From: an uncultured Phycisphaerales bacterium
GTDB taxonomy: Bacteria > Planctomycetota > Phycisphaerae > Tepidisphaerales > Tepidisphaeraceae
Length of the DNA: 64,000 bases
Direction: 5' to 3'
Assembly (NCBI GenBank): GCA_963758525.1
Contig: CAVWVQ010000003.1
Location: 3,072,001 to 3,136,000 of the forward strand
Part shown: piece after piece, positions 2,182-59,452 of the stretch
Layout of the letters: each line of letters opens with the position of its first letter
How positions within the stretch are numbered: the first letter of the stretch is position 1
Notes under the pieces: model-generated
Databases searched by the model: none
The model's input: the letters and a program-made list of their open reading frames with translations, nothing else
What the model was told of the DNA's origin: nothing
Made by a program: the position numbers and the translations under genes

Positions 2182-3477
2182 TCAGGGAGCCCCCATGTTG
2201 TACATATCCATAAACCGGGGGCCGATTGAGCCAATGGTCTGATTGCCGGGGTCGAGGTCCGCGTTGAAGATGGACAACTCGTCAAACATTCCCACCCAGA
2301 CGGCATTCCCGGGAAATTGTCCTACGCAAAAATTCCTGGACGTGGCCGCGGCTTTTTTCGGATAACGGCTCTCAAAGTCGATCCACAGTTTGGTCATGCC
2401 GGTGTTCGCGGCTATCAAAACTCCATTCAAATACGCCTTCATCAGCCCGGCGCGGCTGTCCTTGGTAAACGCCCACATCATCCAGTTCGAATCGGTGCCA
2501 TAGGTGAAGGCGGGATAAATCCCATCGGGCGCAACCGTGGAGTTACCGGTTTCCCATCCGACGACGGCGTTCCCCTGATTAGGACAGGTAATGTCGATGG
2601 CCGGACGCGAGGTGCTTCCTCCAAAGGGACTCCACCAGAGGAACTTGGTCCCGGCAAAGGTCTGGTTCATCTGCGGTGTGATGCAAATCCAGGCAACAAT
2701 GGTGATTGCCTGGGTTTTTTTCAGCATCTTTCCCATCATCGCGGATTGTTTTGGATCGGCGATGAAGAGGGCTGTGTTGCCGCTGCCACTTGGGTTGTAA
2801 GTGCCATCAAAATACAAGGCGGGCTTGCCTCTGAACCGCCCGTCGAAGTGCCACATATTCGTCAGCGCAGCCGTGTTCGTTTCGGGCATGAACCACGTAG
2901 CGCTTTGGGTGTTCATCAGCACGCCATCCAACGCAGAGGCGTTGTAACTGGGAAAATACTGATTCTGCACCGCCATGTTCGTGATCGCGACGCCACCCCG
3001 ATCGTTCTGAAGATTCCAGTGGAGGACGATATCCGGGTCCATCGACAAATCGCGGCTGGAGGCCTGCCAGCGGACGTAGCGCGCCTGCTCGCGGGCCTTG
3101 GAAAGTGCGGGCATCAGCAGACTGATCAGGACCGCGATAATGCCAATGACAACAAGAAGCTCTACGATCGTAAAACCGCGTCGCTGTGATGGACGACGCG
3201 AAGAGGCACCAAGGCACGAAGGCACGAAGGCACAAAGGGGGGGACGGGGGGATCGGGAGTTGGGTCTCTCTGAATGCTCTAGTTTCAACTGTTCCACTGC
3301 TCTACTATCTCGCGCAGCGTGGGGCACGGACGCACGAAGGAAAGAGTGATCGCGTCGGCTCGCCGCAGGCGGCTCGACACGCGTTAAACCTCGGGCGCCG
3401 AAGCGCCGCAAGGCTGAAAGTCGGCGTTGCACATTGCACATTGTCAGATTCCTGACCGCGATGGGATCAGACGACAT
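2182..3477 (-). CDS. Prepilin-type N-terminal cleavage/methylation protein with C-terminal LamG/concanavalin-A-like domain
   Basis: [35 protein letters not shown]; LamG-like MKAYLNG...[25 protein letters not shown] before ATG 3477. Confidence 0.9.
3204..3238. repeat. (GAAGGCAC)n octamer array, in frame inside the prepilin leader
   Basis: aggcacc aaggcacg aaggcacg aaggcacaaagg; same unit at 13470, 22646, 52066, 55257. Confidence 0.85.
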
Positions 3478-3520
3478 TGGGTCTCCCTCCGCCTTTCCTG
3501 CTCAACATCCCTGCATCAGC

Positions 3521-5173
3521 TTACCGCGTTTCACCGATTAACTTTGCATCTGTCCAAAGAATCGCGTCAAAAGAGGTTCCATCGCCGCCGTCGGTCACCG
3601 CGAACGTGAGAAATCGCTCGGCGGGATCGAGGGGGACATCAACCGTGAACGGGGCACGCCTGTTGTCGAACTTGCGTTGCTCGAAAACCAGTTTGTCTCC
3701 GAGCAGAACGTAAACATCCGCCAGTGGCCTTATTTTGCCGGCGGCATCGCTATTGCCGACGACGCACTGCAGCCGCTTCAGGAGATAGGTGGGATGCAGT
3801 CGCCGGATTGCGGCCAGGTCGATGGTCAGGCCGCCATTGCTGCTCATGAACAGGATGCTGTGCGGGGGCGCTGCGTAATCGATGCCGCCGAGCACGGTCC
3901 GGACGGGCGGGTACTTCGAGACACCACGAATGGGGCCGCCTGTCCAAATCTGGTTGTAGACCGCGTTCTGTGTGCGTGGGAAGAGATGTCTTTGCCCAAT
4001 CGAATTCACCTCGACAGGGCCTTTGGCGCCATCAGGGATAAAACAGCCGTCAACAACCAGCGATCCGCTCACTCGATGATACTGATAGTCCCCTTTTACA
4101 AACTCGACCGGTTCGAATGTGCCCAGTGCATGCCTGGCGTAATCGATTGCCATCCCGCTCCGGTGGGTCGTGCCATCGCCGCCGGAGATGAGATCGACGA
4201 GGTCCAGCGCCGCGGGCTCGCCGCCCAGTTGCCGGACAAATTTCTGAGGTTGCGCTCCGGCAGGATCGAGTTTCAAATCGATCCCCGTCGCATTGGCGGC
4301 CTGACCTTCAGTCAGCATCAGAGTGGTTGACGAATTCCCGATGCGCGGCTCAACGCGCACACTTCCCTTGAAAACCTGGATCGCGTCCGATCCGTCCTCG
4401 CTCACCTCCACGCCAAATTCGGTACCCAGATCGACCACTCGAGACGACCCCGCTTCGATGGTAAAGCCGTGAGCGGGAGGCGGCACGACAGCAGTCGCCT
4501 TGCCGAAAGTGAGTTCAACGGCATTGGCGGATCGAATCTGAAAGCGCGCCGGCCCCTCCACGATCATCGTCGCGCCACTCTCGTATTTGATCCCCGCAAC
4601 GCCGGAGCGGAGATAGAGCAACTCTGAAGGAATGGCGCCTCCCGGCTTGGGTGCTCCGCCGGAGGTATCCCATTGCGCATCGTAGGATGCTGTCAGCGTC
4701 GCGAAGCGCTGTGGTGAATGGACGAGCCGGTAAATGCCGATCGCCAGCAGCAGCGGAACAATCGCGGCGGCGATCAATTGCCATCGCGGTCGCAGCAGCG
4801 ATCGCATCAGGGAATTCCATCGCGCTGCTTGGGGCGGCGGTAATTGCTCCTCTGCCGGCTCATGTGTTGGTTCGTCCGCTTCTGTTTCTTGGTCGGTGGC
4901 TGGCTCCTCGATTATCGCCGGGAGCACCATCGACTCGCTTTGCAGCAGCGATCTGCGATCCTCTTCGTCCCGCCGAAATGCTTCGGCGCCGTCGAGCATG
5001 TCTCGCAGGTGACTGTGCAGGATTGCGTCGCGCACGAATCTGCGAACGTTGGCCGGGTCCTCCTTGATCCAGGCGTTCACCTGCGCGGCAACCTCCGGTG
5101 ATGGCGAACCATCCAGAACCGCCGAGATGAGATCGTTCCACTGGTCGTTCACTACATAACCTCGCGCGATCAC
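3521..5173 (-). CDS. FecR-family anti-sigma/sensor with C-terminal NPCBM-like carbohydrate-binding domain
   Basis: N-terminal LISAVLDG anti-sigma helix; TM; FecR motif GFTIEAGSSRVVDLGTEFGV; C-terminal RFLTFAVTDGGDGTSFDAILWTDAKL. Confidence 0.88.
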   Translation of the reverse strand: MIARGYVVNDQWNDLISAVLDGSPSPEVAAQVNAWIKEDPANVRRFVRDAILHSHLRDMLDGAEAFRRDEEDRRSLLQSESMVLPAIIEEPATDQETEADEPTHEPAEEQLPPPQAARWNSLMRSLLRPRWQLIAAAIVPLLLAIGIYRLVHSPQRFATLTASYDAQWDTSGGAPKPGGAIPSELLYLRSGVAGIKYESGATMIVEGPARFQIRSANAVELTFGKATAVVPPPAHGFTIEAGSSRVVDLGTEFGVEVSEDGSDAIQVFKGSVRVEPRIGNSSTTLMLTEGQAANATGIDLKLDPAGAQPQKFVRQLGGEPAALDLVDLISGGDGTTHRSGMAIDYARHALGTFEPVEFVKGDYQYHRVSGSLVVDGCFIPDGAKGPVEVNSIGQRHLFPRTQNAVYNQIWTGGPIRGVSKYPPVRTVLGGIDYAAPPHSILFMSSNGGLTIDLAAIRRLHPTYLLKRLQCVVGNSDAAGKIRPLADVYVLLGDKLVFEQRKFDNRRAPFTVDVPLDPAERFLTFAVTDGGDGTSFDAILWTDAKLIGETR

Positions 5174-5249
5174 GCGCTTCCAAAAACCGTTTAGCGGCTG
5201 CCCTCGGGGCAGCGTGCTTCTGGCACGTGTGCGTCATCGCGCACGTTCA

Positions 5250-5774: not shown

Positions 5775-5993
5775 TCGACGCTCCAGCCGAGATGGGGCGA
5801 GGTTACTCGCCCGCCACTACGCCCCCCTATTTATCTGCGCAAGGTCCAAAAACGTCACGTAATTCCGGATTTCCCAATTCCGAGAGCGGAATTAGCCCGG
5901 ATCATTCAGGAGAACCACGGATTACCCGGCGCTGGCTGCGCCCGCAACCCAAAGCAAAGAAACTGACCGTGGATGAACGCAGGGAATAAGATT

Positions 5994-6185
5994 GAACCGC
6001 TGATAAACGCCGATAAACGCAGATTGATCCAGAGACTTCGGTGATTCATTCAATCTGCGTTCATTCGCGTTCATCTGCGGTTCCCTTTCTTCCGTCTGCG
6101 CGCCCGTCAAAGCCTCGGCATCTGCACCTAAACTACGCTCCCTCCGACACATCCGTGCCATCCGTGTAATCCGTGGTCAATCCGG
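5994..6185. repeat. Nonamer-repeat hairpin (arms 5994-6027 / 6050-6083) plus (ATCCGTGxx)n array
   Basis: gaaccgctgataaacgccgataaacgcagattga versus reverse complement gaaccgcagatgaacgcgaatgaacgcagattga; catccgtgccatccgtgtaatccgtgg at ~6150. Confidence 0.8.
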
Positions 6186-6408
6186 GTTTTGCAGGGATTC
6201 GAATGATTTTTATTGGGCAAGACAAAGGATTCTGAGAATTATGTGACGGTTTGGGCACGCCGCGCAGATATCCCATTGAAAGCCGGAGGTTGAGGAAATC
6301 GGCCCGTCTGGACGGCCGCAGAAGTCAGGTTCAACGGTTGGGGGGACACCCCGTACCAGCCGGGATAGACGCGGCCTGCTTTATGGCGGAGCAACGAGAG
6401 GACAGAAA

Positions 6409-13469: not shown

Positions 13470-13510
13470 GCACGGAGGCACCGAGGCACGGAGGCACGAA
13501 GGGAAGGAAG
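13470..13510. repeat. (GGAGGCAC)n octamer array directly before start codon
   Basis: gcacggaggcaccgaggcacggaggcacgaagggaaggaag. Confidence 0.8.
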
Positions 13511-13514: not shown

Positions 13515-14762
13515 ATGCATATCCTCGTGATGGCGCTTGCATGCCTGATGGCGGGCGATTTGGTCTCGGTTGCCTCCGCCGCTGGTCCTGACACGGCCGC
13601 TGGCGAGACGCCGCAAGCACTCCAAGAGGCATCACCGCAGGCCGTGCGAAAGGCGGGCCCTTTTGTTCATCCGGGCTTGCTGAGCACCGAACAAGACTTT
13701 CGGCGGATGAAGGCCATGGTGGATGCGGGGCGCGAGCCTTGGAAATCTGACTGGGAGAAGCTGATCGCCAACCCGCATGCCTCCCTCAAATGGGAGCCGC
13801 GTCCGGCCCAGGTCATTTACCGGGGAAAAGCAAGAGGTCAGACGGCGAGGGAAAACTATGTGCAGTTATACCGGGATACGGCCACGGCCTACTCATTGGC
13901 GTTGAGGTGGCGCATTTCCGGAGATCCCGCGTATGGGCGCCAGGCGGTGGTGGTTCTCAATGCGTGGGCTGCAACGCTGACGAAGATTTCCGGCGATTCG
14001 AATGCCTGCCTGGCCCTCGGCATTTATGGGTACCAATTCGCCTGCGCCGCCGAGATCATGCGCACCTTTGACGCTTGGGATCGACAGGATTTTGCCCGAT
14101 TCCAGGAAATGATGCTGCGGGTGTTCTACCCGGCCAACTCCGATTTTCTCATTCGCCACAACAACACCAAGATCGACCATTACTGGTGCAACTGGGACGC
14201 CTGCAATATGTGCTCCATGCTCGCCATCGGGGTGCTCTGCGACAAGCGGCCGATCTATGACGAGGCCGTGGATTATTTCAAGCATGGAAAGGGAAACGGG
14301 GCAATCGAGCAAGCAGTTTATTTCATTCATCCAGACGGTCTTGGCCAATGGCAGGAGAGCGGGCGCGATCAGGCCCACACCATGATGGGAGTTGGTCTGC
14401 TGGCAACTTTCTGCCAGATGGCCTGGAACCAGGGGGATGATCTATATGGGTACGACAACAATCGTTTGCTGTCGGGCGCCGAGTATGTCGCAAAGTACAA
14501 CCTGGGCGAAGACGTCCCCTATCAAACTTACAAGAACAGCCTCGCGACTCAGCCGGAGATCAGCTCGTTCGGCAGGGGCGGCCAGCGGCCGATATGGGAA
14601 ATCCTCTACAACCATTACGTGAAGCTCAAGGGACTGCCCGCGCCGTACGTAACCCGGGCCGCCGAATCCGTCCGGCCCGAAGGCGGCGCCGGGGATTATG
14701 GCCCGAACAGCGGCGGTTTTGACATGCTCGGGTATGGCACGCTGACCTTCACGTTGAACTAG
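13515..14762 (+). CDS. Alginate lyase family (alpha/alpha toroid) secreted protein
   Basis: Signal peptide; FVHPGLL; HYWCNWD; GQWQESGRDQAH; GYGTLTFT. Confidence 0.85.
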   Translation: MHILVMALACLMAGDLVSVASAAGPDTAAGETPQALQEASPQAVRKAGPFVHPGLLSTEQDFRRMKAMVDAGREPWKSDWEKLIANPHASLKWEPRPAQVIYRGKARGQTARENYVQLYRDTATAYSLALRWRISGDPAYGRQAVVVLNAWAATLTKISGDSNACLALGIYGYQFACAAEIMRTFDAWDRQDFARFQEMMLRVFYPANSDFLIRHNNTKIDHYWCNWDACNMCSMLAIGVLCDKRPIYDEAVDYFKHGKGNGAIEQAVYFIHPDGLGQWQESGRDQAHTMMGVGLLATFCQMAWNQGDDLYGYDNNRLLSGAEYVAKYNLGEDVPYQTYKNSLATQPEISSFGRGGQRPIWEILYNHYVKLKGLPAPYVTRAAESVRPEGGAGDYGPNSGGFDMLGYGTLTFTLN

Positions 14763-15592
14763 GCTCTGTCTGACGGATCGAGAACCCTCAGGTATTTCAG
14801 CATGATAGCGAGTTTGGCGAAGCTCAAGAAGTTAAGAGCCAGCTTCTCATAGCGTGTTCCCAGCCGACGACATTCCTTGAGCCATCCGATAGCACACTCG
14901 ATGCGGCTTCGTTTGCGGTAGCTGCTTTTATCGAATCGCTCGCCCTTTGGTCGTGGCTGATTGGATTTGCGCGGGATGACGGCTTCGATCCCGCAATCGG
15001 CCAGGAACTGGCGAACGGTTTCGTAGCTGTACCCTTTGTCGCCCGCGATCTTCCCCGGCCAGCCGATGTGCAGGGGCGCTGCACCGCGTGCATCACCTTG
15101 TGGAGCTGCGTGGATTCGTGCGTTTGCCCCGCGGTAACGGTGACGGCGAGCACAAGGCCCTTTCCGTCAGTAACCACGTGGAACTTTGATCCCCATCCGC
15201 CGCGCGAGCGGCCCAGCGCGTGGTCGGCCGGTTCGAAGTCGAGGCCGCGCCCCCTTTGCGCGCCCGGCGGCAGCGCGAGAAGCACGCACATTGGAGCCGT
15301 CGACGAGCCAGAGATCCCAATCGATCTTGCCCTCCTTGTTGAGTCGAATCCGCAGTGCTTTGAGGATGCGATCGAAGAAGCCTTCGCGCCGCCAGCGGTT
15401 GAAGCGATCATAGACGCTCTTCCATTTCCCGTAGCGTTCGGGCATGTCTCGCCATGGAGCTCCGGAGCGAAGAATCCAGAGCATCCCATTGAGCGTGATG
15501 CGGTGGTCGTTCCATCGTCCGCCACGTTTTTGTACGGGGAAAAGTGCCTTGATCAGGTTCCAGTGATCATCCGTGAGTTCATAGCGCGCCAT
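14759..15592 (-). CDS. IS5-family DDE transposase, split ORFs (orfA 15592-15167; likely -1 shift at AAAGGGGG ~15255; further breaks ~15075 and ~14825)
   Basis: MARYELTDDHW...WRDMPERYGKWKSVYDRFNRW; LGRSRGGWGSKFHVVTDGKG; DKGY; TRYEKLA; ends DPSDRA*. Confidence 0.9.
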
Positions 15593-20700: not shown

Positions 20701-22639
20701 CTAAAACGGCAACGACTGATCCATCCAATCGTCACTGCGGAGCACCTGTTTTCGATTGAACCGCGCGAATCGCTCGGCCTTGGCCTGTGCCATGGCGATA
20801 AGTCGTCCCGCACCGATGGTGCGCCAGGCCTTTCGCGCGATCGGTGCGTGACGCAGAAACAGGTCGTCTTCGGCGCAGGCAAAGAGCTGGGCGCACCCAG
20901 GATCTCCCTGACGGGCGGCTCTGCCGAAGAGCTGGCGGTCGACGCGGCCCGAGCCGTGGGGTTCGGTGGCGATCACGTGGAGACCGCCCATCTCGGCGAC
21001 GCCTTTGGCGAGCTTGATGTCGGTGCCGCGGCCGGCCATGTTGGTGGCGACGGTGATCATGCCGCGGGTGCCGGCTTCAGAGACGATCGAGGCTTCGCGC
21101 GCGGTCTGGGTGGCGTTGAGCACGCGATGCACTTTGCTTAAATCGGTGAGCCGTTTGCTCACTTCCTCCGACGCCAGCACGCTGCGGGTTCCGACGAGAA
21201 CGGGGACACCCTTCTCGTTCAGTTCGCAGACGCGCTGGATGACGGCCGTCCATTTTTCTTCCATCGTATCGAACATGCGCAGCGGAAGCAGCGTGCGGAT
21301 GCACGGGCGGTTGGTCGGAATGCGCACAACGGGGCGCTGATAGATCTGCCAGAGCTCGCCGGCAGATTCCCATGCGGTGCCGGTCATGCCGCTCATGTCA
21401 GGATACTGGCGGAAGAAGCGCTGGAAGCTGAGACGGGCGAGGTTTTCCTTGTCAGCGGTGACATTGACTCCCTCCTTGACCTCGATCGCCTGGTGCAGCC
21501 CGTGCCGCCAGCTTCGATCGGCCATCACGCGGCCCGTGAACTCGTCGATGATCTGCACCTTCCCGTCTTCGGCGACGAGATAATGCTCGTCGCGGACGAA
21601 ACAATGGCGTCCGCACAGCGCCTGCGTCACCAGCTCTTCGCGCCGGCGCTTGCCTTTCCAGAAGCCGGAGGCGGCCGAGAGTTGTTCCAGGCGTTCCTGT
21701 CCATTGGCGGTCAGATCGACGCTGCGAACCGTGCGGTCGATGGTGAAGTCGCGACCGAATTGAAGCTGCTGGGCCAGCTCGTCGGCGGCGCGGTAGTGCG
21801 TGGCATTGGGCTCGTCATCGGGAGAATTGGAAATGATCAGCGGGGTCACCGCTTCGTCGATGAGAAGGCTGTCCGCTTCGTCGACCAGGGCGCGCGCCAG
21901 GCCGGGAACCATCAGCCGCCCCGCAAAGCTGGAGGCGCCGCCGGCGAGTTGACGCACGGAGGTCTGGGTGCTGGTGCGGAGCGTGCCGAGCTGAAGCTGA
22001 TCGCGGAGGAAATCGGCCACCAGCTCCTTGCTCGTGCAGTAGACCACGTCGCGGCGGTAGTGATCGATGCGCTCATTGGCGGGAAGATCATGGACGATGG
22101 CTCCGGCACGCAATCCGAGCATGCGGTAGACCGGCCCCATCTCGTGAGCGTCGCGTTCCACCAGATAATCGTTGACGGTAATCACGTGCACGGGCCGTCC
22201 GCGCCAGGCGAGCAGCGAAGCGGCGAGCGAAGCGGTGAGCGTCTTGCCTTCCCCGGTTGCCATTTCCGCGACGGCGCCGCCGATCATCGCCAGCGCCCCC
22301 ATGATCTGCACGTGGAAGGGCCGCATTCCCAGCGCCCGCCACGCCGCCTCGGCGCCAGGGCCATGGCGCGATCTTCGGCCTCTCCCTCAAGCCGGCCGCG
22401 CCGCGCCAGCGCCGCGCATCGGCCACCGCGTCGCGAAACCGTTCGGCGCCCAGCTCGCGGATCTGAGGCTCGAGCTGCTCGATCCGATCCGCCTGCGCGC
22501 GAAGGCGCGCCAACATCGGCCGGCGGTTCTTAAACCATCCATGCACCCCGTTGGCGGCGGCGTCGAGTCCCTTGAGTTCCGGCGCTTTTACCCGCCGGGC
22601 GTCAAAGATCGCGTAAAGTTCGTCAGTGGCGGAAGTCAT
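20701..22639 (-). CDS. secA: Accessory, C-terminally short SecA-family (SecA_DEAD) ATPase; frameshifted ~22340-22420
   Basis: EMATGEGKT, HVITVNDYLVERD, VDEADSLLIDEA, IIDEFTGRVM, GMTGTA, VATNMAGRGTDI, RVDRQLFGRAARQGDPG; ends shortly after NBD2. Confidence 0.9.
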
Positions 22640-22645: not shown

Positions 22646-22903
22646 GAAGGCACGAAGGCACGAAGGCACGAAGGCACGGAGGGAAGAGGGAACGAGAAGC
22701 ACGAAAGGGACGAGAGGCACGAAGGCACGTAGGCACGTAGGCACGGAGGGGAAGATAGGCGGTGAAGGGGGAGGAAATTCATCGAGTTACTCATGGCCTT
22801 CTCTGATTGCTCGTAAGTGCGCGAAAACTTTGACCGAGGAAGGCACGATGCGAAAATCCGGGCCTGACTCTGATTTTCCCTTCGTGCCTCCGTGCCTTCT
22901 TCC
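22646..22903. repeat. Octamer-array inverted bracket filling the M50-to-secA junction
   Basis: (gaaggcac)n at 22646-22750; complementary ttcgtgcctccgtgccttc at ~22881-22899. Confidence 0.85.
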
Positions 22904-25096: not shown

Positions 25097-25114
25097 CTGG
25101 GGTTCAGTGTGATT

Positions 25115-25630
25115 GAGGGTTCAGGGTGTCAGGGTTCAGGGTGTCAGGGTTCAGGTAGGGAGGACGGGTTAAGATCCAGGGTTGGGCGCAGGGAAGCGAC
25201 GGTCGCTGGGGGCGAGTTGTTGTTCCAAAGTTCTTTCCAGTCCGTTAAGCATTTTTACGCACTCGGTATAGCGCTCGCGGTAGTCGTTATACGTTTCTTC
25301 TGTCAGGTAGCCTTTCAGCATCGCTATGTACAAGTGATGAACCGCTTCCAGCGATTCGCCCCTTGCACGGTTTGCGCCTTCAATTTTATTCCGCACATGC
25401 CGATCGCTGTGCTTCTCGGCCAGTTGCGCCGGAGCGCTGTTCGAACAGCGCCTTATCTGGGACACCAGCTCAAACCGTTCTTCCCTTGGCCATTTCGCGG
25501 ACAGCTGACAAACCTCCAAGTGCAACACGCACAACTTCTGATAAATGCTCAGATCCTCAATCCGCTTAAATCCCACCACAACCATCCCCTCCGAAATCCT
25601 GAACCCGGACCCCTGACACCCTGAACCCTC
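25115..25630. mobile_element. Inverted-repeat-bracketed cassette carrying a four-helix-bundle gene
   Basis: gagggttcagggtgtcaggg (25115-25134) is the exact reverse complement of ccctgacaccctgaaccctc (25611-25630); arms are 7/8-mer tandem arrays (25115-25155, 25598-25630). Confidence 0.7.
25169..25585 (-). CDS. Four-helix-bundle protein (23S rRNA IVP / Avd-like family)
   Basis: FKRIEDLSIYQK...WPREERFELVSQIRRCSNSAPAQLAE...ARGESLEAVHHLYIAMLKGYL...KMLNGL; SD GGAGGGG. Confidence 0.9.
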   Translation of the reverse strand: MVVVGFKRIEDLSIYQKLCVLHLEVCQLSAKWPREERFELVSQIRRCSNSAPAQLAEKHSDRHVRNKIEGANRARGESLEAVHHLYIAMLKGYLTEETYNDYRERYTECVKMLNGLERTLEQQLAPSDRRFPAPNPGS

Positions 25631-25632
25631 TC

Positions 25633-27581
25633 TCACATCCACAACTTGAGCTTCAGGAAGTCGATCAGCCGGTGCGTCCAGATCCAGGCGACGCTGCGCT
25701 TGGCGACGTCGACGCGCGCTTCGCCTTTCATGCCGGGGCGCAGGTGGGGACGGCTTTGCCGGTGAGGGTGACGTAGACGCGGAAATTGTTGGTCCCTTCT
25801 TTCGGATCGGGAATGGGGATGATGCGCTCGACGACAAAATCGAACGAGTCGCCCGGCTGGGCGTTGGTGGCGAGGGTTCCGTGCTGGCCGATGTGAATGT
25901 TCTGGATGTCGCGGTCATCGACGGTCAGTTCGCCGCGCAGGTCGTGATCGCTGCCGATTTCGAAGAGCACGTCGCCGGTCTTGACCGGGGAATCGAGTTT
26001 ATCTTCCAGGTCACCCTTGAGGATCTCCGCGTCGACCGGGGCGACGATCGTGCCGCGGGCGATTTGGGCGCTGAGAAAATCCACTTCGTTTTTAGCTTCT
26101 TCACCTTCCGAGATGGAAACCTGTTCCTCGGCGGTCTTTTCCTCGGCGCGGTAGCGGGCGGCTTCCTTGGTCTTGGTGTTCACGCGGGCCTGCGCCTCGG
26201 CCAATTTCAGCTTCATGTCGGTGGTGTCGAGCATGGCCAGGGTCTGGCCCGCCTTGATCATGTCACCTTGACGGAGCGGCTTGCCATCCGGGCCCTTGCC
26301 CACTTCGCTGATAAAGCCTTCGAAGGGCGCGGGAATCTGGCAATGCGCCCGCGAGGCAAACTCGAACGAGGCGCTGACGTGGTACATCGGCCTGATGACG
26401 AAGATGCCGACGAGGATCAGCGCGACGCCGATGGCGATCAGCTTGCCGAGCATATGCTGCGGGCCAACGGCACGCTTGGCGAGTTCGCGGATGCTGATCC
26501 CGGCTTTGGTGATCAGCCAGCGATCGTTCTGAAATCGGTCGTACAGTTGTGGAGCCAGCAGATCGATGGCGATGCTCAGCGCCTGCCCGACGTTAGGCCC
26601 CAGTTTTTCCTGCGCGGGGAATTCGGCGGTGATGACGCCGATGATCTCATCGCGCCGCCGCAGCGGCAGCGAGAGGACAGCGGCGCCGCCCTGCTCGCGG
26701 GAAAACGCGGCGGCTTCGCGCGTGACGTTCTGGGTGTTTTGCCCGGCGGGATCGAACTGAACGATTTCGTCCTGATCCGCGCATTCCTCCATCACCTTCT
26801 CGAGCGAGACGATCAGTTCCTGTTTCTTGTCGAATTCCTCAGTGTGCGAGATCGCCTTGACGCGGACGTTTCGCCCCTTCACCCAGCCCATGGTCACGCG
26901 CGACGCGTGCGCCCGGCCGGCCAGCTCGTTGCACAGATTCATCGCCGCCGACTCAAACCCTTCGGCCGTCGCGACGGAGGTGGAGAGCTGCAGCACGTGC
27001 TGATGGCTCTCGGCAATCAACTTGCTCTGCTCGGCAAGGCGGCGCAGGGTGAACAACTCGAAATATCCGGCCACGAGCTTCATCGAGTTGAGGCGCTGGC
27101 GGGCGCGTTCCAGATCGAGGCAGCGGGCGATGACCGCGGAGACGGCCACCACCTCGTTGTCCGCGCGCAGGAGCGTGACGAGGCAGAACTGTGTTTCGTG
27201 AGTGTCGCCGGTCATTCCCAGTTCGATTGCGCCGTCCTTCATCTGCTGCACGCAGGGAACGACCAATTCCTGGAACGCCGACACGGCCGCGGTGCGAACC
27301 TGGGCGCTGCTGTTGTCATGGCGGAGATGCGCGAGAAGGCGGAGGGAGACCGATTCGTCCGCGCGTTCGATGAGAAAGCCGACGGCTTCGGTTCCCGCAA
27401 CGGTCGTCGCCTGCGTGCTGATCAGCTCAGTGACGAATGCGGGGAGATCCCGGGCGTCGATCAGGCGCTGCGCCAGCTCCGAGCGGTGCCCGCTGGGTTG
27501 CGCGGTTCCCTGCGCCTGTTCGGCTTCAGAACTTTGCGATGATTCGACTATCCCTTCAGCCACGAATTGCTCCTTGCTCAC
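25633..27581 (-). CDS. HlyD/MFP-family adaptor with N-terminal GAF-like region; frameshifted ~25745
   Basis: GAF-like AAVLSLPLRRRDEIIGVIT; TM; lipoyl-like IPAPFEGFISEV and IVAPVDAEI; tail RPGMKGEARVDVAKRSVAWIWTHRLIDFLKLKLWM*. Confidence 0.85.
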
Positions 27582-36333: not shown

Positions 36334-36456
36334 CCGTGAAAAGGAAACACGAATCTGCACGAATTGCCTGCGAATCCACACGAATAAACGCGAAGACAAT
36401 TTACTTCGTGAAGATTCGTGGGCAACTCGTGTCGATCCGTGTTCCGGATTTCACGG
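36334..36456. repeat. Hairpin of CACGAAT-type tandem units between convergent genes
   Basis: ccgtgaaaaggaaacacgaatctgcacgaattgcctgcgaatccacacgaa versus reverse complement ccgtgaaatccggaacacggatcgacacgagttgcccacgaatcttcacgaa. Confidence 0.75.
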
Positions 36457-49706: not shown

Positions 49707-49740
49707 AACATCCGAAGCGTAGCGTCGGGGGTGAAAGCGA

Positions 49741-50245: not shown

Positions 50246-50266
50246 TTTGATTCGGAGTCTGTCGCG

Positions 50267-52031: not shown

Positions 52032-54333
52032 CTATTGATCCGCAAGCTGCGATGGAACGACCGGCATGCCTCCGTGTCTCCGTGCCTCCGTGGTGAACTC
52101 TTCCTGGAGCGCAAGTTTCGGTTGTTCCCGCTCGGCCGATCGCAGCAGCAGCGCATTTCCAATCACCGTGACGTCGGACAACGCCATTGCCGCGGCGGCA
52201 ATCAGGGGCGTCAGCAGGCCCAGCGCGGCCAGCGGGATGGCCAGCACATTGTAGAGAAACGCGAAGAACAGATTCTGGCGGATCTTGGACATGGTCGCCC
52301 GGCTGAGCCGAATCGCGGCAGCGACGCCGTGCAGGCTGCCGGAAATGAGCACGATGTCGCCGGTCTCTTTGGCGATGTCCGAGCCGCTGCCGATGGCGAT
52401 CCCCAGATCGGCCAACGCCAGTGCCGGAGCGTCGTTGATTCCGTCGCCGACCATGGCGACGACATGACCCGCCGCCTGCAGGGAGGCAATCACTTCCGCC
52501 TTTTGCGCGGGCTTCACCTTGCGCGGACGTCTTGGATTCCTACAGCGCGCACGACTTCGTTGGCAACCGCCGCCGTGTCTCCGGTGAGCAGCACGGTTGT
52601 CAGGCCCATCGCCTGCAATTCCGCGATCGCGGCGGCGGAGTCGGGCTTGATCGCATCGGAAATCGCGATCGAGCCGATCAGCTCTACGCCGTGTTTGGTC
52701 CGCAGCGCGACGTGAACCAGCGTTTGCGCCAGAGGCGCTCCGTCGAGATTGGGGACCGGTCCGTGCTGTTCGAGCAGTTCGAGATTGCCGACGAGAATGG
52801 TGCGGCCGTCAATCTCAGCGACGATTCCCATCCCCGGCTCGGTGTTGAACGATGTCGGCTGGGCATAGCTGAGCTTTCGCTCCCGCGCCGCCGCGATGAT
52901 GGCGCCGGCGAGGGGGTGCTGGCTGAACTGTTCCGCGGCGGCCGCGAGCCGGAGTATCTCACTTTCGTCATTTCCATCAACGGGGATCACCCGCGTAACA
53001 GTCGGCTTGCCCGCGGTGATCGTCCCGGTTTTGTCGAGGACGACGGTATCGATTCTGCGGGCACTCTGCAGAGCGTCGATGTTGCGAATGAGAATTCCGC
53101 GTTTGGCGCCGCGGCCGGTTCCGACCATCAATGCGGCGGGAACTGCCAGGCCCAGGGCGCAGGGGCACGCAATAATCAGCACGCTGCAAACGGCGTTCGC
53201 GGTGCGGGCGCAGGTCGCCGTCAAAGGCAACCCGTGGGCGGCGCCCCAGGCGTACCATCCGGCCGCGGTGATGGCGGCGATGAACAACACTGCGGGGACG
53301 AAGACGGCCGCCACCTGATCCGCGATGCGCTGCACCGGCGGCTTGCTTGACTGCGCCGTCTCGACCATGTGCACGATCTGCGCCAGCGCCGTCTGGCTTC
53401 CGGTTGCGGAAATCTTCGCCTGCAGCGCGCCGGTCTGATTGATCGTTCCGCCGATGATCTGATCGCCCGGTCCCCGAGGCACGGGCAGCGACTCTCCGGT
53501 GAGCATCGATTCATCGATCGACGATCTCCCGGCAAAGACCACCGCATCCGCCGGCACACGCTCGCCCGGGCGAATCAGCACGCGATCGCCAACAACGAGC
53601 TCTGAAACCGGCACATCCTGCGTCTGCAGATTGACCAATTGATGGGCGATCGCCGGCGTGAGGTTCAACAGCTCGTGAATGGCCGACCCGGCGGATTGCC
53701 GGGCGCGAGCTTCAAGATAATGGCCCAGGCTGATCAGCGCGAGCAACCCGCTGGCCTCCATGAAGTACAGTTGCGGCTCGCGCGCCCACCAATGCAGCAG
53801 ATATCCCGCGAACGCGATGAGGCTGTAGAAGTAAGCGACCGAAGCGCCCATCGAAATGAGCGTGTCCATGTTGCTGGTGCGCTGCGCAACGCCGCAAAGG
53901 CGCTCGCGTAAAACGCCCGGCCGACGTAGACGATCGCGATCGTGCTCGCGATCAGCGACGGCCAGTCGAGATTCAGCATGTGCCCTGCCAGGTGCGAAAT
54001 CCAGTGCAGCAATTCGATCGGCAGCCAGAGAATCACGCCGGCAACGGCGCGATTCAGCCAGGAGCGGGCATGGAGCGCCTGGGCGGCGAGGCGTTGCGCT
54101 TCGCCGGTTTCAGCATTGGATTCCGGATGAGACGGATAGCCGACATTGGTGATCGCCGTTGCGATCTGATCTGACGAGACCTTCTTTGGATCAAATTGAA
54201 CCACCGCGCGACCGCGAGCGAGGTTGACCCGCGCATCTTCCACGCCCGGCAGGGCGCGTGCCGCCTTCTCCACGTGTGCGACGCAACTCGCGCAGTCCAT
54301 TCCCCCGACGTCAAATGCCGCTTCCGTGGTCAT
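52032..54333 (-). CDS. copA: Cu(I)-type P1B heavy-metal ATPase; frameshifts ~53880 and ~52517
   Basis: GMDCASC, TGES, CPCALG, DKTGT, HP, GDGIND, YNVLAIP, AMALSD. Confidence 0.9.
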
Positions 54334-54361
54334 CTGTCCGAATCATAGGCGATTTCCCCAT

Positions 54362-55252: not shown

Positions 55253-55256
55253 GTTA

Positions 55257-55365
55257 GGGGAAGGCACGAAGGCACGAAGGCACGGAGGCACGAAGGGAAG
55301 GAAGGGGAAGCTCGGGGAAGGCACGAAGGCACGAAGGCACGGAGGCACGAAGGGAAGGAAGGGGA
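55257..55365. repeat. Perfect 52-bp direct duplication (period 57) of an octamer array, directly upstream of the permease ATG
   Basis: ggggaaggcacgaaggcacgaaggcacggaggcacgaagggaaggaagggga at 55257 and 55314. Confidence 0.9.
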
Positions 55366-55510
55366 GGTGGCGTTGGAAACGAGGGTCTTCCGTCGGTTCG
55401 CAATTGGTGATTTGCGGGATTATTTGCAGTCTGCAATTCGCTGTCGCGAATTGGCGTGCCGCCGGGTGTCGAGGGGGACCGATCTAGCAGTATTGCGGCG
55501 TTGGCAATAT

Positions 55511-56377
55511 TCATTTCCGGTCCCCGCTGGCGGGCTCGGAGCCCAGCACGGCGTCGTATCCATGTTGGAAGACGGCTCTCAATACTTGCGGCGTGAGACC
55601 CTGCGGCGCGTCGTGATAGTGTATGGTTTTGCGGAGACACGCGATGCGCGTGCAGCCGGCGGCGAGGGCTTCGATGTCGTGACTGACGACGATGACTGTG
55701 AGCTTGAGCGATTGATGCAATTCTCGGATCAGCGAACCGATTTCGCGCTGGCCGGGGGCGTCGATCCCGGACATGGGCTCATCGAGGATGACGATTTGCG
55801 GCCGGGCGACCAGCGCGCGAGCGATGAAGATCCGCTGCTGCTGACCGCCGGAGAGCTCGCCGATGGGCGCATCGGCGAGATGCGCGACTCCAACGCGTTG
55901 CATCATCATTTCCGCGTACTGGAGGTCCGCCGGGGCGTGGCGTCGAAAAAGGCCGGTTTTTCCGACGAGGCCGAGGCGGACGACTTGTCTTGCCGTCAGG
56001 GGGAATCGCCATTCGGCACTGTTGCGTTGGGGAACATAGCCGACGATATCGCCGCGCCGGCACGCTTGCGCCGGGGAGAGGCCCGCGACAGTGACGGTTC
56101 CGCTGTAGCCGTTGAGGAGGCCGAGCATGATCCGAAGCAGCGTTGTCTTTCCCGCCCCGTTGGGACCGATGATGCCCAGATTCATGCCCGACTCGACATT
56201 GAGGCTCACATCTTCCAAAACATTGATCGATTTCCCCGCGCCAGCGCCGCGGCCGCGATAACTGAAGCCAACGTGCTCGACGCGGATCGCGTCGTTGGCG
56301 GAGCGCAGCGGTTCGGCCGCGCCGCAATGGTCGTGATCCGCGTGGCCGCAGGAGGTTGTTGCGACAGCGTCATTCAT
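55511..56377 (-). CDS. Zn/Mn ABC transporter ATP-binding protein (ZnuC-like)
   Basis: His/Cys N-terminus CGHADHDHC; GPNGAGKT; GYVPQ; LSGGQQQR; LDEP; SHD. Confidence 0.92.
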   Translation of the reverse strand: MNDAVATTSCGHADHDHCGAAEPLRSANDAIRVEHVGFSYRGRGAGAGKSINVLEDVSLNVESGMNLGIIGPNGAGKTTLLRIMLGLLNGYSGTVTVAGLSPAQACRRGDIVGYVPQRNSAEWRFPLTARQVVRLGLVGKTGLFRRHAPADLQYAEMMMQRVGVAHLADAPIGELSGGQQQRIFIARALVARPQIVILDEPMSGIDAPGQREIGSLIRELHQSLKLTVIVVSHDIEALAAGCTRIACLRKTIHYHDAPQGLTPQVLRAVFQHGYDAVLGSEPASGDRK

Positions 56378-57548
56378 GGCTTGGGCGATTGCCCTTCCGC
56401 CAGCACATTTACATCCGATTTGAGCATCGCCTGATAGCTGTCGTAGCCGGGAATCGACGGGCCGCCAAGGTCGTCCAGCGACAGCACGCGCACCCCCGAC
56501 TCCTCGCGCAGCATATCGGTGGCGCGCGGCGGATATTGCGGCTCGGCATAGATCACGCGCAGGTGGTACCGCCGGATCGCGTCCAGCGCCTCGACAAGGT
56601 CTTTGGGCGAGACTTCGCCGCCCGGCGCAAGCTCGATTTCCGTCAGATGCGCCACCGCGCCAGGCCGTATCGCGTTGCCAGCGGGTCATACGCGTTGTGA
56701 TACGAGACAAACTCCTTCACGGGAACGGCCGTGAGCTGCCGGCGGAACGCTTCGTCCATTTTATCAAGATCATGCTGGAGCGTTTGCGCCCGTGCCGCAA
56801 TGTCGGCCGAATGGGCCGGGTACTGCTGCGCCAGCGCCTCGGCCAGCACTCCGACAAAATCCTTCGTGTATGCCGGGTCCATCCACAGATGCGGATTGCG
56901 GCCCATGGCTCGCGTCACTTCCGCCGGCGTCGAGCCGGCCATGCGGATGACCCGCAGGTCTTTGCGCGCCACCTGCTGCGCCGCGCGATCCGCCCAGCCG
57001 TCGAGATTCAGGCCGACTTCGACCAGCAGATCGGCCCTGCTCAGGGGCTCCATCTGCGCCGGCTGCGGTTCAAAATCGTGAGGACTGCTGCCGGGCGGCA
57101 TCAGTAATTCGACGTTGGCCCAGTCGCCCGTCAGTTGGCCGACGATGCTCTGCAGCGGAAAGATCGTCGCCACGATGACGGGGCGTGTGTCGGATTTGGC
57201 TACCGTGTCGCGCCCGCAGCCCGCCAAAAGACCTGGGGCGAAGATAAAGAAAAAGAACACCATCGACGCGAATTTGCGCAGTCTCGCGATCCGGAACCGC
57301 GCGCCGAGAAGCCGCAACCAAATCACCCTCACCCCAACCCTCTCCCGGCGTACCGGGAGAGGGGGCCGGACGCTGGCGAATGATAGGGGTGCGTCAGGAT
57401 TCTTCCCGTCGTTGTCTCGCAATCGCGGGAACCGCGGCGGGATGAATTCCGCCCTACGTGAGATCAACCTGCGGCTCAGCGTACGGCCCACTCGTGCGAT
57501 CCCATTCCTGAACCCTGAACCCTGTACCTTGAACCCTCCTTCCGGCAT
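56374..57548 (-). CDS. Zn/Mn ABC substrate-binding lipoprotein (ZnuA-like); frameshift ~56660; start 57548 or 57263
   Basis: Lipobox LLAGC; SPHDFEP; NPHLWMDP; YHNAY; IYAEPQ. Confidence 0.88.
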
Positions 57549-57985
57549 CACGCGCACCTCGGACACAATCCGTGCAGCAGCACTTCGGGAAATTTCACGT
57601 GATAATCCCGGCGGACGTGCAGCGACTTCACGAACGAGTCGGGAATCGGCGCGTCCTCCAGGCACTCGACCGTGCCGCATTCGTCGCAGACAAAATGCGG
57701 ATGACGATGTGCCGCGCGCGGCTGCGGCGCGCCCAGGGCATAGCTCCAGGAGCGGTCCTTGGCGCGGATGCGGTGGATCAACTGCAACTCAGTGAAGGTG
57801 TTCAGCGTGCGATAGACGGTGACGGTGTCTGTCGCATCGGGGAGAAGCTGGAGCATTTGCGGCGCAGTCAGCGGCTGGGTGCTTTGCTCCAGCAGCTTCA
57901 GCAGCGCCAGCCGCACCGGCGTCCGCCGCAGCTTTGCACTTTGCAGCAACTGATCGATCGAGGGTTTGGAGTGAGCTGAATCCAT
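57548..57985 (-). CDS. Fur/Zur-family transcriptional regulator
   Basis: RRTPVR, TVTVYRTL, HRHPHFVCDECG, GLCPRC. Confidence 0.92.
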   Translation of the reverse strand: MDSAHSKPSIDQLLQSAKLRRTPVRLALLKLLEQSTQPLTAPQMLQLLPDATDTVTVYRTLNTFTELQLIHRIRAKDRSWSYALGAPQPRAAHRHPHFVCDECGTVECLEDAPIPDSFVKSLHVRRDYHVKFPEVLLHGLCPRCA

Positions 57986-58001
57986 GGGTTGTTCCAAAGC
58001 A

Positions 58002-59369
58002 TCAGCCGGTGACCAGATTCGTCGCGACCGGTGTGCGGTAGGCTTTGAGGGCCGGCACGAGCCCGGCGATCAGCGCGACGACAATTACGGCGATCAGATA
58101 CACCCATTCGTACTTGTCGACGTGGATCCAGTTGATCCCTTCCCCGATGTACTCATTGAGATAAAACGAGCCGACCCCCGCCAGCAGATGTCCCGCAAGC
58201 AAGCCGAGCAATCCGCCCGCGATGCCGATGATGCTCGACTCCAGGCAGATCAGCAGCAGCACCTTGCCGCGCGTCGCGCCCAGGGCGCGGAGAATCGCGA
58301 TTTCGCGCAGCCGCGCGGAGACCGAGTTGTAGATGCTCACAAGAATTCCCACCGCCGCGACCACCGTCACCAGCAGTGCGATGATCAGAAGGACCAGCGT
58401 CGGTCCCTGCAGGAACGTGCTGAAGAATTCGCGCATCACGCTGGCGGGGTTGACCGCCATCGCTTCATTCCCGTTGTTGATGGTGTACATCAACTGTTCG
58501 GCGGTGAATCCGCTGCGCGCTTTGATGAGAATCGCGGACACCTCCCACATTTCCTGCGGGACCAGCAGCTTGAACGTTTTGTCGGGATTCATGACATAGA
58601 CCGGAATCTCATCCGCGTCGATGTTCTGCGGCGGGGGCGGCAAATGGTTCTGGATATACCATTGCGATTTGAGCCCCACCGCGTGCTCCGCGATCGTGTA
58701 GAGGCTCTTGAACGGAATGAAGACGACGCGATCGTTGGCGGTATGGGTCGGCTTGAGGATGCCGACAACCGTCCACACCTCGGGGTGAATATCAGGCGTC
58801 TCGCCCGGACGGGGCATCCCGTGCGTCGCCTGAAACGTCGATCCGATGTGCAGGCTGGTGAGCTTTGCGAGCTCGGACCCGATGACGGCTTCGAATTTCT
58901 CCGGACCAAAAACGTGGCCGTCCTGCAGTTCATAACGCCTGCCCGGGCGGTATTCCATCACTTTGTCCGCTTCCAGCGGGTTGCCATCGTCGTCGACTCC
59001 GAACAACTTTGTCGACGTTCCCACGATGCGAAACTTCCCCTGATAGGTGTCTCCGACCACATATGGAATCGCGATTCGCACATCGGCGTGATACTTGCGA
59101 AGCATGTCTCCGTACAACGAATACGGAATGTTCCCCGGGCTCTTGTCCATGTGATAGACGGTATTGAGGACGAGTTGTGTCCCCGAACCCTGCTTTCCGA
59201 CGATCACTTCGTAGCCGTAATCAGTCTGCCCGAAGAGCGCGCCGGCCTGGCCGCGGAGGATGATGATAGATGTTGCCAGGGCCACGCCGAGCGTGACGGA
59301 CAGGAGCGTGAGCCAGGTGGAGAGGGCTCGCTGCCGCATGTTTTTCAGGACGAGTTGGAAGGGGTTCAT
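58002..59369 (-). CDS. MacB/FtsX-type ABC permease (ZrgC-like)
   Basis: GSGTQLVLNTVYH, FEAVIGS, HG, REIAILRALGA, GLVPALKAY. Confidence 0.88.
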   Translation of the reverse strand: MNPFQLVLKNMRQRALSTWLTLLSVTLGVALATSIIILRGQAGALFGQTDYGYEVIVGKQGSGTQLVLNTVYHMDKSPGNIPYSLYGDMLRKYHADVRIAIPYVVGDTYQGKFRIVGTSTKLFGVDDDGNPLEADKVMEYRPGRRYELQDGHVFGPEKFEAVIGSELAKLTSLHIGSTFQATHGMPRPGETPDIHPEVWTVVGILKPTHTANDRVVFIPFKSLYTIAEHAVGLKSQWYIQNHLPPPPQNIDADEIPVYVMNPDKTFKLLVPQEMWEVSAILIKARSGFTAEQLMYTINNGNEAMAVNPASVMREFFSTFLQGPTLVLLIIALLVTVVAAVGILVSIYNSVSARLREIAILRALGATRGKVLLLICLESSIIGIAGGLLGLLAGHLLAGVGSFYLNEYIGEGINWIHVDKYEWVYLIAVIVVALIAGLVPALKAYRTPVATNLVTG

Positions 59370-59452
59370 ACGGGAATCTCAAATCTCAAATTTCAAATCT
59401 CAAATTTCAAATACGGGAATCTCAAATCTCAAATTTCAAATGTCAAATGTCA
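59368..59452. repeat. AT-rich heptamer array (TCTCAAA/TTTCAAA) with 43-bp-period duplication, abutting start codon
   Basis: atacgggaatctcaaatctcaaatttcaaat at 59368 and 59411. Confidence 0.9.

Follow-up and report, generated by a model that had tools for sequence, protein, structure and literature searches.

What has placed short tandem arrays of unrelated sequence at so many gene junctions of this locus? To our knowledge bacterial heptamer repeats have been described without a spreading mechanism, and we know of no function for the IVP/S23p and GxxExxY protein families; the genome studied here joins these two separate problems. We analysed a window of 64,000 nt (GCA_963758525.1, CAVWVQ010000003.1, positions 3,072,001 to 3,136,000) from an uncultured Phycisphaerales bacterium of the Tepidisphaeraceae, together with its whole genome (G000, contig C3), two congeners (G001 and G002) and further relatives (other G numbers). 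We consider it fairly probable that the arrays are the inverted tandem-repeat arms of GxxExxY and IVP cassettes, with gene-less hairpins and lone arms likely being their non-autonomous, deleted or decayed offspring. The repeats are likely footprints of small mobile cassettes because their units are common to the brackets of cargo genes and because one hairpin equals a gene minus its middle.

Results and Discussion

All arrays named by a first-pass annotation of this DNA were recovered in place and far above chance in a shuffle comparison. In the first 2 Mb of C3, arrays of period 7, 8 and 10 number 105, 110 and 29 versus 1, 0 and 0 after a local triplet shuffle. The whole genome holds 650 non-coding arrays, 391 of them with an inverted partner (inverted match of at least 14/16 within 600 nt; control 21), and the pairs point inward in 260 cases versus outward in 22. 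The assertion that arrays usually have a partner thus holds genome-wide; the window itself has five paired systems (5914/6150, 5990/6067, 22646/22883, 25116/25611 and 36348/36405) and six lone arms (3204, 13470, 52067, 55257, 57507 and 59375; best match at most 12/16). About 15 units coexist in the genome, mostly without G-runs, in two classes: a GxxExxY class of 8-10-mers and a four-helix-bundle (IVP) class of 7/8-mers. The units have a 5'-arm pattern nnnGYnA in common (G in 49/52 units; score above 20 of 20 shuffles). In the TTTTCA family the pyrimidine-rich arm is the 5' arm, and purine/pyrimidine content is not a general arm rule.

The GxxExxY class and its deletion copies

The cargo-less hairpin at 5927..6098 (- strand, CGCAGATGAA/GATAAACGC arms) has a loop made of a few codons from the start of a GxxExxY gene joined to its last codons. 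An intact cassette of this kind (L010) lies at G000:C3:2087930-2088274, and its BLAST search returned 14 loci in the genome. Besides the intact one, both gene ends were above threshold at seven loci and at three more, including the window, the short 3' end was recognised by eye, so that ten loci in all, hairpin 5927-6098 included, are deletion copies with both ends. On a 437-nt reference the breakpoints of the copies are 135/350 (twice), 123/344, 89/395 (three times), 166/406, 91/403, 126/416 and 91/329, and that of the window hairpin, the shortest of them, is about 78/413. The copies are 82-97% identical and dispersed between unrelated genes. Judged by this alignment, hairpin 5927-6098 is a copy of the intact cassette that has lost its middle. 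No deletion copies of the GxxExxY genes L009 and L012 were found in the genome. The L010 cassette was not recovered from the two congeners, and among 140 family genomes four had matches, of 67-70%. The parent belongs to GxxExxY/PDDEXK_3, a PD-(D/E)XK family of Pfam; all four GxxExxY genes match the TIGR04256 profile (101-137 bits, cut-off 35), and the protein has no PDB relative at E<=1.

The same hairpin is nested. A short CACGGAT 5' arm of GxxExxY type at 5914..5926 (+) is the outer partner of the CACGGAT arm at 6150..6175 (-; ATCCGTGxx on the + strand), the pair being interrupted by the element 5927..6098, and 5905-6185 folds with z -4.3 against shuffles. Genome-wide, arms of different families nest inward in 66/74 mixed clusters (null 43). 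Two further features of the window are, the second of them tentatively, of this type: a CACGAAT-family hairpin at 36334..36456 (no strand assigned; z -5.8) with 32 BLAST matches in the genome, those listed resembling it at about 80% along most of the hairpin, and a lone CACGGAGG arm at 52067..52097 (-), whose CACCAC outer cap, compared by eye, suggests the GxxExxY type. The latter forms an in-frame C-terminal extension of a P-type ATPase, absent in G001, G002 and G010.

Arms of GxxExxY type also build a near-identical MITE (27/32) of about 260-280 bp. At 13/13 independent sites it follows the motif YYRYGY, and most of these sites can be recognised as arms, which belong to several GxxExxY-type unit families. 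Together with the inward nesting this gives partial support to the proposal that arms are recognised across different units. No target duplication was visible by eye for the MITE and the deletion copies, and the intact parent encodes no recognised transposase (no DDE or HUH). Insertion after a fixed short motif without duplication is the pattern of IS200/IS605-type HUH enzymes, and it speaks for the strongest alternative, which we nevertheless regard as unlikely: that all the hairpins are moved by another enzyme, either an HUH (RAYT/IS200-type) transposase or a group II intron reverse transcriptase, and that the GxxExxY and IVP genes are passengers caught in the loops. The genome has 23 Y1 transposase matches and six reverse transcriptase matches, the two scanned being of group II type; many array-rich genomes are without a matching IVP, and IVPs are distant homologues of Avd (E 2e-4 to 1e-6, below cut-off). 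However, by eye most Y1 genes carry terminal inverted repeats of their own, or palindromes of another kind, and not tandem arms, and in different genera and classes alike the unit goes with the clade of the cargo, for which a passenger would have no need. Of the suggested association with four-helix-bundle, GxxExxY and RAYT genes, the first two stand (TIGR02436, TIGR04256), whereas the HUH Y1 genes are mostly without arms. The reverse transcriptase matches sit at other places than the IVP genes, which have no neighbouring DGR reverse transcriptase and reach 21-29 bits with the DGR Avd profile NF033474 (cut-off 80).

The IVP class

The complete IVP cassette of the window consists of a four-helix-bundle gene at 25169..25585 (-; 23S rRNA IVP, PF05635/TIGR02436) with GGAGG upstream of its ATG, a GGGTTCA 5' arm at 25598..25629 (-) directly after the hlyD-like stop, and a GGGTTCA 3' arm at 25101..25155 (+) ending just before the ATG of an M50 peptidase (25096). 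The protein scores 82.7 bits with PF05635 (cut-off 33.8) and 76 bits with TIGR02436 and resembles the XCC0516 structure 2gsc (E 6e-4); the cassette folds as a single long stem including the stop region (z -5.3). At this hlyD-M50 junction G000 and G052 have the GGGTTCA IVP cassette, both congeners have arms of the same GGGTTCA unit but no gene, and in G014 and G010 the junction is short and arm-less. A single orthologous junction thus has same-unit arms with the gene in some genomes and without it in others. Together with the GxxExxY deletion series, this supports the proposal that the arrays are footprints of cargo-bearing cassettes.

A second site tells a similar story. Of 63 genomes examined, 15 carry an IVP gene lying in frame within dnaE2. 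In relatives such nested genes are flanked by the GAAGGCAC unit, and G077 has the same GAAGGCAC arms in dnaE2 without an IVP gene. The DnaE2 frame over the nested gene has no stop in any of the 15, while free-standing IVPs are stop-free in 7/86. With the frame open, excision without religation cannot be the rule in dnaE2; going by the reading frames, it is likely that the cassette stays in the mRNA and is translated along with it. Of AGGCAC and AGCGAC, the unit of the dnaE2 cassette itself is the commoner genome-wide in 12/12 genomes. In our own genome the arms of the dnaE2 cassette are GAAGGGAC, which differs from the dominant GAAGGCAC by a single base, and for the IVPs nested in dnaE2 the tree that relates arm type to protein has poor resolution.

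Beyond these sites, inverted flanks matching at 17/20 or better occur at 75/94 IVP loci versus 10/464 mismatched pairs, and each IVP protein clade has its own 7/8-mer unit. The GGGTTCA-armed IVPs are one clade (support 100/100), and GGGTTCA arms are also found on six more relatives from other Planctomycetota at other loci. Among 141 family genomes, kin not being independent, 8/8 with this clade hold at least 16 GGGTTCA matches and 19/133 without it hold at least 10; 19/27 GGGTTCA-rich genomes are without the matching clade, in assemblies that are partly incomplete. The GAAGGCAC family has 335 matches in our genome and none in both congeners. The flanks of the genome's eight IVPs match 198 arrays versus a mean of 95 for random foreign sets, 181/2000 of which are as high, which misses the 5% level. 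For none of the eight IVP genes was a deletion copy found in the genome, and 144 loops had contact with any of 113 cargo sequences in four cases (blastn) or two (tblastx), all weak; with both so scarce, the argument for a deletion origin of the two biggest families of the window is the orthologous-site comparison only.

The remaining IVP-class arms of the window have no gene. At 22646..22749 (+; 3'-type on the - strand mRNA) a GAAGGCAC arm ends 6 nt before a secA-like ATG (22639) and its partner at 22879..22903 (-) directly follows the hlyD-like stop (22905); as previously described, the arms are present without cargo. Their loop is unique in the genome and has no detectable cargo derivation, and the junction folds no better than shuffles (z -1.4). 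Lone GAAGGCAC-family arms are found at 3204..3238 (+; 3'-type on the - strand mRNA), in frame at the N-terminus of a prepilin-type ORF (N_methyl and Laminin_G_3), at 13470..13502 (+), a 5' arm between a dehydrogenase stop (13367) and an alginate-lyase ATG (13515), and at 55257..55365 (+; 3'-type on the - strand mRNA), with an exact 57-bp duplication, 4 nt before the ATG of an ABC-3 permease (55252). The arrays at 3204 and 52066 thus lie inside reading frames. A lone GGGTTCA 5' arm at 57507..57537 (-) follows the Fur stop (57548), and a lone TTTGAGA 5'-type arm with a 43-bp duplication lies at 59368..59456 (-) between an ABC ATPase stop and an FtsX-like ATG. The latter is absent from the corresponding junctions of G001, G052 and G111, and its unit brackets IVP genes in G009 and G026. 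Arrays had been placed within about 20 nt of the next ATG at four sites, and all four agree, since besides 22646 and 55257 the distances are 19 nt for 25116 (to 25096) and 5 nt for 59375 (to 59369). At 59368 and 13470 the arm is of the 5' type, leading from a stop towards the next ATG, and neither is a "pyrimidine arm before the ATG".

Could such arms have arisen where they stand? Immobile IVP-type arms made by in-place slippage and template switching, with gene conversion spreading the locally common unit, cassette arms included, would fit the loop middles, which are singletons in 36/53 GAAGGCAC and 17/17 GGGTTCA cases, and the exact block duplications (57 bp at 55257, 43 bp at 59368). They would also fit the different unit in the congener at 4/4 doubly occupied orthologous junctions scored, the same-unit junction of the window being outside this count, and the congener co-occupancy of 4/13 versus 8/120 (p=0.018). 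We regard this as quite improbable; it leaves unexplained the GxxExxY deletion series, the near-identical MITE, a 243-arm family without a pattern match in both congeners, and the way in which each protein clade keeps to one unit at unrelated loci, even in different classes.

Position and regulation

IVP-type 5' arms lie within 25 nt of a stop codon in 182/288 cases, about twice the expected 96, as opposed to 9/57 arms of the GxxExxY class. This difference, and units that track the cargo protein clade, lend no support to a single sequence-blind mechanism. The proximity to stops, the cassette stem that takes in the stop region and the stems of rRNA intervening sequences, which according to the available part of the source are RNase III substrates (PMC4990558), could point to a regulatory role in the host, as RNase III sites, mRNA stabilisers or translation couplers by which operon stoichiometry is tuned, with the cargo using safe sites. 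Yet junction occupancy is nearly equal at 11.3% (++), 12.9% (--), 12.8% (convergent) and 11.0% (divergent), the sense strand has no folding or G.U advantage over the antisense strand (46 vs 45, n=91), orthologous junctions are empty or differently filled in relatives, and a stem lies inside the dnaE2 coding sequence with the frame open. A main role in operon stoichiometry, as first proposed, is hence not supported, and we consider the regulatory reading very improbable. That the arrays are long-read assembly or polishing artefacts, as a six-contig assembly with several frameshifted genes and the two block duplications might suggest, is largely refuted by units, polarity and sites that recur in independent assemblies (the two main patterns in 45 and 88 of 141 genomes) and by in-frame arrays that preserve the dnaE2 frame in 14/15 cassettes.

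A model for the spread of the cassettes

Under the cassette reading, cassettes and offspring would spread as DNA, much like REPINs and MITEs. The predicted nuclease GxxExxY would cut its own arms and so move its own cassette and derivatives, and IVP, for which we know of no catalytic site, would be a helper that binds nucleic acid and labels its own unit for a nuclease provided in trans. Newly arriving elements may prefer to land in older hairpins, which would account for nesting, mixed arm caps and unique loops, and the unit number would have changed afterwards, likely by slippage. More tentatively, and with the odds rather against it, GxxExxY might be an unrecognised transposase class and IVP/S23p the unit-specific arm binders of a transposase-free cassette, together the source of unexplained heptamer and octamer families in which every clade seeds a unit of its own; the rRNA intervening sequence and the dnaE2-nested gene would then be two landing sites of a single element.

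As one genome holds an intact GxxExxY cassette, deletion copies derived from it and a MITE with a target motif, a protein of 115 residues and a substrate of 170 bp suffice for a mobilisation assay. If mobilisation works, this would be a very small new transposition system, and for the IVPs matched protein-unit pairs are at hand (GGGTTCA, AGGCAC, AGCGAC). The arrays also alter proteins through in-frame inserts and C-terminal extensions and upset annotation.

Comparison with known systems

MITEs can derive from insertion sequences by internal deletion. The graded internal deletions, with some breakpoints repeated, resemble them for L010, though for none of the eight IVPs, and differ in a parent without DDE or HUH transposase and in the absence of a target duplication by eye. 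RAYT/REPIN and REPtron/TIRtron systems, as far as the available parts of the sources describe them, combine a low-copy gene with its own repeats, gene-less doublets and clusters, and REPs insert in frame, DnaE2 genes included (Bertels and Rainey 2011, PMC3116915; Di Nocera et al. 2013, PMC3733652). High-copy gene-less inverted doublets and matching repeats beside a low-copy gene are found here as well, but the arms are tandem 7-10-mers instead of single palindromes of about 20-40 bp, the resident gene is of the PD-(D/E)XK family or a four-helix bundle instead of an HUH tyrosine transposase, and IVP-class loops are not common to the copies. A copied unit comprising the whole doublet with its loop fits the CGCGAAG (27/32) and CGCAGATGAA elements, and does not fit the GAAGGCAC or GGGTTCA loops.

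The 23S rRNA intervening sequences with an S23p ORF (Warrier et al. 2016, PMC4990558, available part) likewise have a PF05635 cargo inside a long terminal stem. IVP cassettes occupy tight stop-to-start junctions, a 23S rRNA site or the in-frame dnaE2 loop, and one heptamer-armed IVP of G009 (L164) is inside 23S rRNA. In contrast, the five intact IVP loci scanned in our genome are all outside rRNA, the orthologous 23S site is empty, and an Rfam scan of the window and of loci L001-L003, L005 and L006 gave no match. The open DnaE2 frame argues against obligatory RNase III excision from the dnaE2 transcript.

Arrays of 7 nt with fixed polarity to stops and starts are present here as in Xanthomonas/Beggiatoaceae-type repeats. 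The TAACTGA repeats of Beggiatoaceae, Cyanobacteria and Bacteroidetes are patchy, with one inverted repeat in 170 sets, and were interpreted as translational regulation although "no mechanism is evident"; the available text contains neither "four helix" nor "intervening" (MacGregor 2015, PMC4679880). They share with our arrays the place of a Shine-Dalgarno sequence a few nt before starts, while inverted pairs are common here. No link of heptamer repeats to cargo genes was found in the literature searched. Paired heptamers of such polarity are already in print: the GGGAATC and GGGGA(C/T)T heptamers of Xanthomonas and Nostoc form convergent inverted pairs (70 in Xcc), with the G-rich strand at most 50 bp after stops (sense) or before starts (antisense), and were, in the available part of the paper, described with one unit per genome, read as G-quadruplex and in general found to have no association with mobile elements (Rehm et al. 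2015, PMC4692102). Our arrays are like them in tandem build, convergent pairing and polarity to stops and starts, and unlike them in that here about 15 units, mostly without G-runs, are tied to cargo genes.

Results and Discussion

The tandem repeat arrays are real and belong to two classes, which are associated with the genes for the four-helix-bundle protein (IVP) and for the nuclease-family protein GxxExxY. We analyzed the Phycisphaerales genome G000 (6.47 Mb, 61% GC, 6 contigs, 91% complete, flat GC skew) using gene calls from a custom hexamer model, of which the stops are reliable and the starts less so; several of the called genes are frameshifted. All arrays named in the first-pass annotation were found in the window sequence, and arrays of period 7, 8 and 10, which are mostly non-coding, number 105, 110 and 29 in comparison to 1, 0 and 0 after shuffling. 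The complementary partner arrays noted there also occur genome-wide, since 391 of 650 non-coding arrays have one on either side (control 21), with the inverted partner located 3' of the purine strand for 353 arrays and on the 5' side for 68. In the window itself this pairing holds for five systems, with six arms being lone. As assembled, two of the lone arms contain exact duplications, of 57 bp (at 55257) and 43 bp (at 59368). An Rfam search of the window gave no match. Using 15 hand-made patterns to define the arm families, we found that among 969 arms in G000 neighbours of the same family face inward in 260 cases and outward in 22, and neighbours of different families likewise (36 vs 3). At least two families are present in one intergenic region in 77 regions (null mean 51, maximum 69), and 66 of 74 mixed-family clusters show a nested arrangement (null 43).

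Profile searches identified eight IVP and four GxxExxY matches in G000, most of which carry their own arm unit as judged by eye, with the IVP loci L004 and L008 being ambiguous. For the IVP class we used 94 of 97 loci fetched from G000 and its relatives, and 75 of them possess inverted flanks (control 10/464). In the IVP protein tree (n = 91) the units cluster by clade, with a support of 100/100 for the GGGTTCA clade and 100/95 for the AGGCAC/AGGGAC group. Among 141 family genomes, 8 contain the clade of the window's IVP, and every one of these is rich in GGGTTCA, as are 19 of the other 133; G004 was counted solely as one genome wherever genomes were tallied. Six further clade members from other Planctomycetota show GGGTTCA arms at other loci, and in G096 the upstream GGGTTCA arm has the 3' orientation. 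An own-cassette enrichment test for G000 was not significant. Between arms of the same unit, longer cargo (≤2 kb) was by eye only IVP, GxxExxY or ordinary genes lying between separate hairpins.

The hlyD-M50 junction, where GGGTTCA brackets the window's IVP, was readable in 18 of 20 fetched relatives and shows filled, half-filled and empty orthologous alleles, which are unpolarised for gain versus loss. G052 carries the full cassette, both congeners (G001 and G002) have arms of the same GGGTTCA unit and no gene, about seven genera carry other units, and in G014 and G010 the junction is short and arm-less (all but the first by eye). From 82 foreign IVP junctions 43 have an orthologue in G000, and among those listed it is mostly empty or occupied by another unit. 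A cargo-less GGGTTCA hairpin at acp-fabZ is absent in G000, the site being empty. An IVP cassette with AACCTAG heptamer arms lies inside the 23S rRNA of a relative (L164, G009:C7:69300-70600); in G000 the orthologous site (C3 about 3672250) holds no cassette, and the 16S gene is found a long way off (C3 about 5013500), so that the rRNA genes look unlinked.

The dominant octamer family GAAGGCAC shows 335 matches in G000 and none in either congener, and the exact unit brackets IVP genes nested within dnaE2 of relatives. Nested IVPs are present in 15 of 63 dnaE2 sites examined (60 fetched of about 97 found), a count that is no frequency because the last 20 sites were partly chosen for long frames. 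They are 48–79% identical, and the DnaE2 frame is stop-free across all 15, as against 7 of 86 free IVPs; T precedes AA, AG or GA codons in 0 of 347 cases in nested IVPs vs 237 of 1285 elsewhere. The host gene tolerates the insert in frame, the DnaE2 frame being open through the IVP in G000 and 13 of 14 relatives; dnaE2 of G102 is frameshifted ahead of it. Other alleles are empty or carry in-frame hairpins, and in G077 the GAAGGCAC arms are present and the gene is absent. In G000, dnaE2 (L002, G000:C3:4375037-4378474) holds a complete IVP gene in another frame and several further in-frame arm insertions; the arms of this cassette are GAAGGGAC, a one-base variant of GAAGGCAC. Of the two octamers compared, the one forming the cassette's arms was the more abundant in all 12 genomes, with counts that include the cassette's own arms and an AGGCAC pattern that overlaps a GxxExxY-type octamer, and arm type clusters on the poorly resolved dnaE2-IVP protein tree (4 changes vs 7.2 in shuffles). 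The GAAGGCAC unit is stop-free in all frames of both strands, and 34 of the 50 arms within called genes belong to this family. Its arms draw on a small set of shared inner caps, which occur in mixed left-right combinations; its loops are unique and show no likeness to cargo, and no cargo remnants were found in GAAGGCAC or GGGTTCA loops.

For the GxxExxY class the deletion series is directly visible. In the gene-less window hairpin at 5927-6098, each side corresponds to one flank of the intact cassette L010 (G000:C3:2087930-2088274, with a start encoded by its arm), and the loop fuses the first few codons after the arm to the last few of the gene; a global alignment of the two displays the 5' match only. 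BLAST with L010 gave 14 loci, namely the parent, seven with both gene ends, three with a visible short 3' end and three that retain just a single end or an arm. The derivatives have eight different breakpoint pairs, two of them recurring, and therefore several deletions occurred and some derivatives were likely recopied. The parent cassette was not found in the congeners, which suggests a recent arrival. Gene L009 has CGCGAAG arms, and a second element is built from these; 27 of its 32 loops are nearly identical. This MITE occupies 13 independent sites, mostly within 3' arms of 8-, 9- or 10-nt units, with YYRYGY before each and no visible target duplication. The window element has a right tip related to that of the MITE and likewise lies within an arm, of unit CACGGAT, at the equivalent phase. 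The earlier proposal of a mechanism that recognises structure or periodicity across different units finds its best support in this site use, with the qualification that a short shared motif is involved besides structure. The MITE also forms tandem arrays with a period of ~350-380 bp (G000:C3:573871-575650, 3900183-3901445 and 4092526-4093894), resembling BIME clusters.

One family of arrays has been shown to consist of cassette footprints, and the remaining ones likely have this origin too. We suggest that the GxxExxY protein might move its own class as DNA, and that IVP cassettes might be moved by another nuclease helped by IVP. A HUH transposase or a reverse transcriptase acting in trans is a possible mover as well. 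IS-like tips with 8-bp scars were not seen by eye in the G000 elements. A function at the RNA level, such as the tuning of operon stoichiometry considered in the first pass, is not supported by strand test or junction use: neither folding energy nor G.U pairing favours the sense strand (46 vs 45 among 91 pairs), operon junctions are not preferred (93/154 pairs co-directional vs 2240/3442 junctions), and occupancy by arms is equal across all junction types. The stop-anchoring of IVP-type 5' arms is real, as 182 of 288 lie ≤25 nt from a stop (96 expected); the proximity of GxxExxY-type arms is at chance (9/57 vs 8.7 expected). Arms as rearrangement hot spots were rejected, with G001 adjacency retained at 14/71 armed vs 62/289 unarmed junctions (p = 0.87; 800 kb of G001's 5.4 Mb covered).

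Several other elements were observed alongside the arms. Window 57322-57366 holds a non-tandem REP-like palindrome, a separate repeat family with 172 BLAST matches in G000 and many in G001, G002 and G111. A paired 9-mer family, AATGGCGGG, is clustered at G000:C3:1428926-1454075 and a lone, partnerless 10-mer family, AAATGGCACG, is located elsewhere, neither with a convincing cargo match. The coding 24-nt repeat (~11 copies, window 34281-34539, inside ORF 33296-34651) is unrelated to the arm families. Multi-copy Y1 transposase elements (L013-L028, by eye two families) are bounded by terminal inverted repeats and not by REPs (TIRtron-like). A transposase-like insert (window 14762-15592) starts exactly at the alginate lyase stop, and its end sequence recurs behind another gene, a truncated Y1 at C3:3469301. 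Six reverse transcriptase matches (L288-L292) include four of equal score, and the two scanned are of group II intron type. Apparent frameshifts in the secA-like (window 22326-22639), hlyD-like (25633-25731), P-type ATPase (52514-52517) and ZnuA-like (56374-56655) genes are probably assembly indels; the first two genes are intact in the relatives compared.

Conclusion

Parts of this picture have precedents. Convergent heptamer pairs of identical polarity have been described (Rehm 2015, PMC4692102), as have heptamers before start codons (MacGregor 2015, PMC4679880), the rRNA case of IVP (Warrier 2016, PMC4990558), and both a REPIN/REPtron model and DnaE2 genes with inserted REPs (Bertels 2011, PMC3116915; Di Nocera 2013, PMC3733652). 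In the passages of these five papers that we consulted the repeats are not tied to IVP or GxxExxY genes, the word 'tandem' is absent from the text of PMC5581495, and a search of the open literature listed 3 papers containing 'GxxExxY' and gave no paper joining the repeats to either gene family. The arm cassettes work like RAYT/REPIN and like IS/MITE systems, but differ from both in that the linked genes do not encode the kind of transposase found in either.
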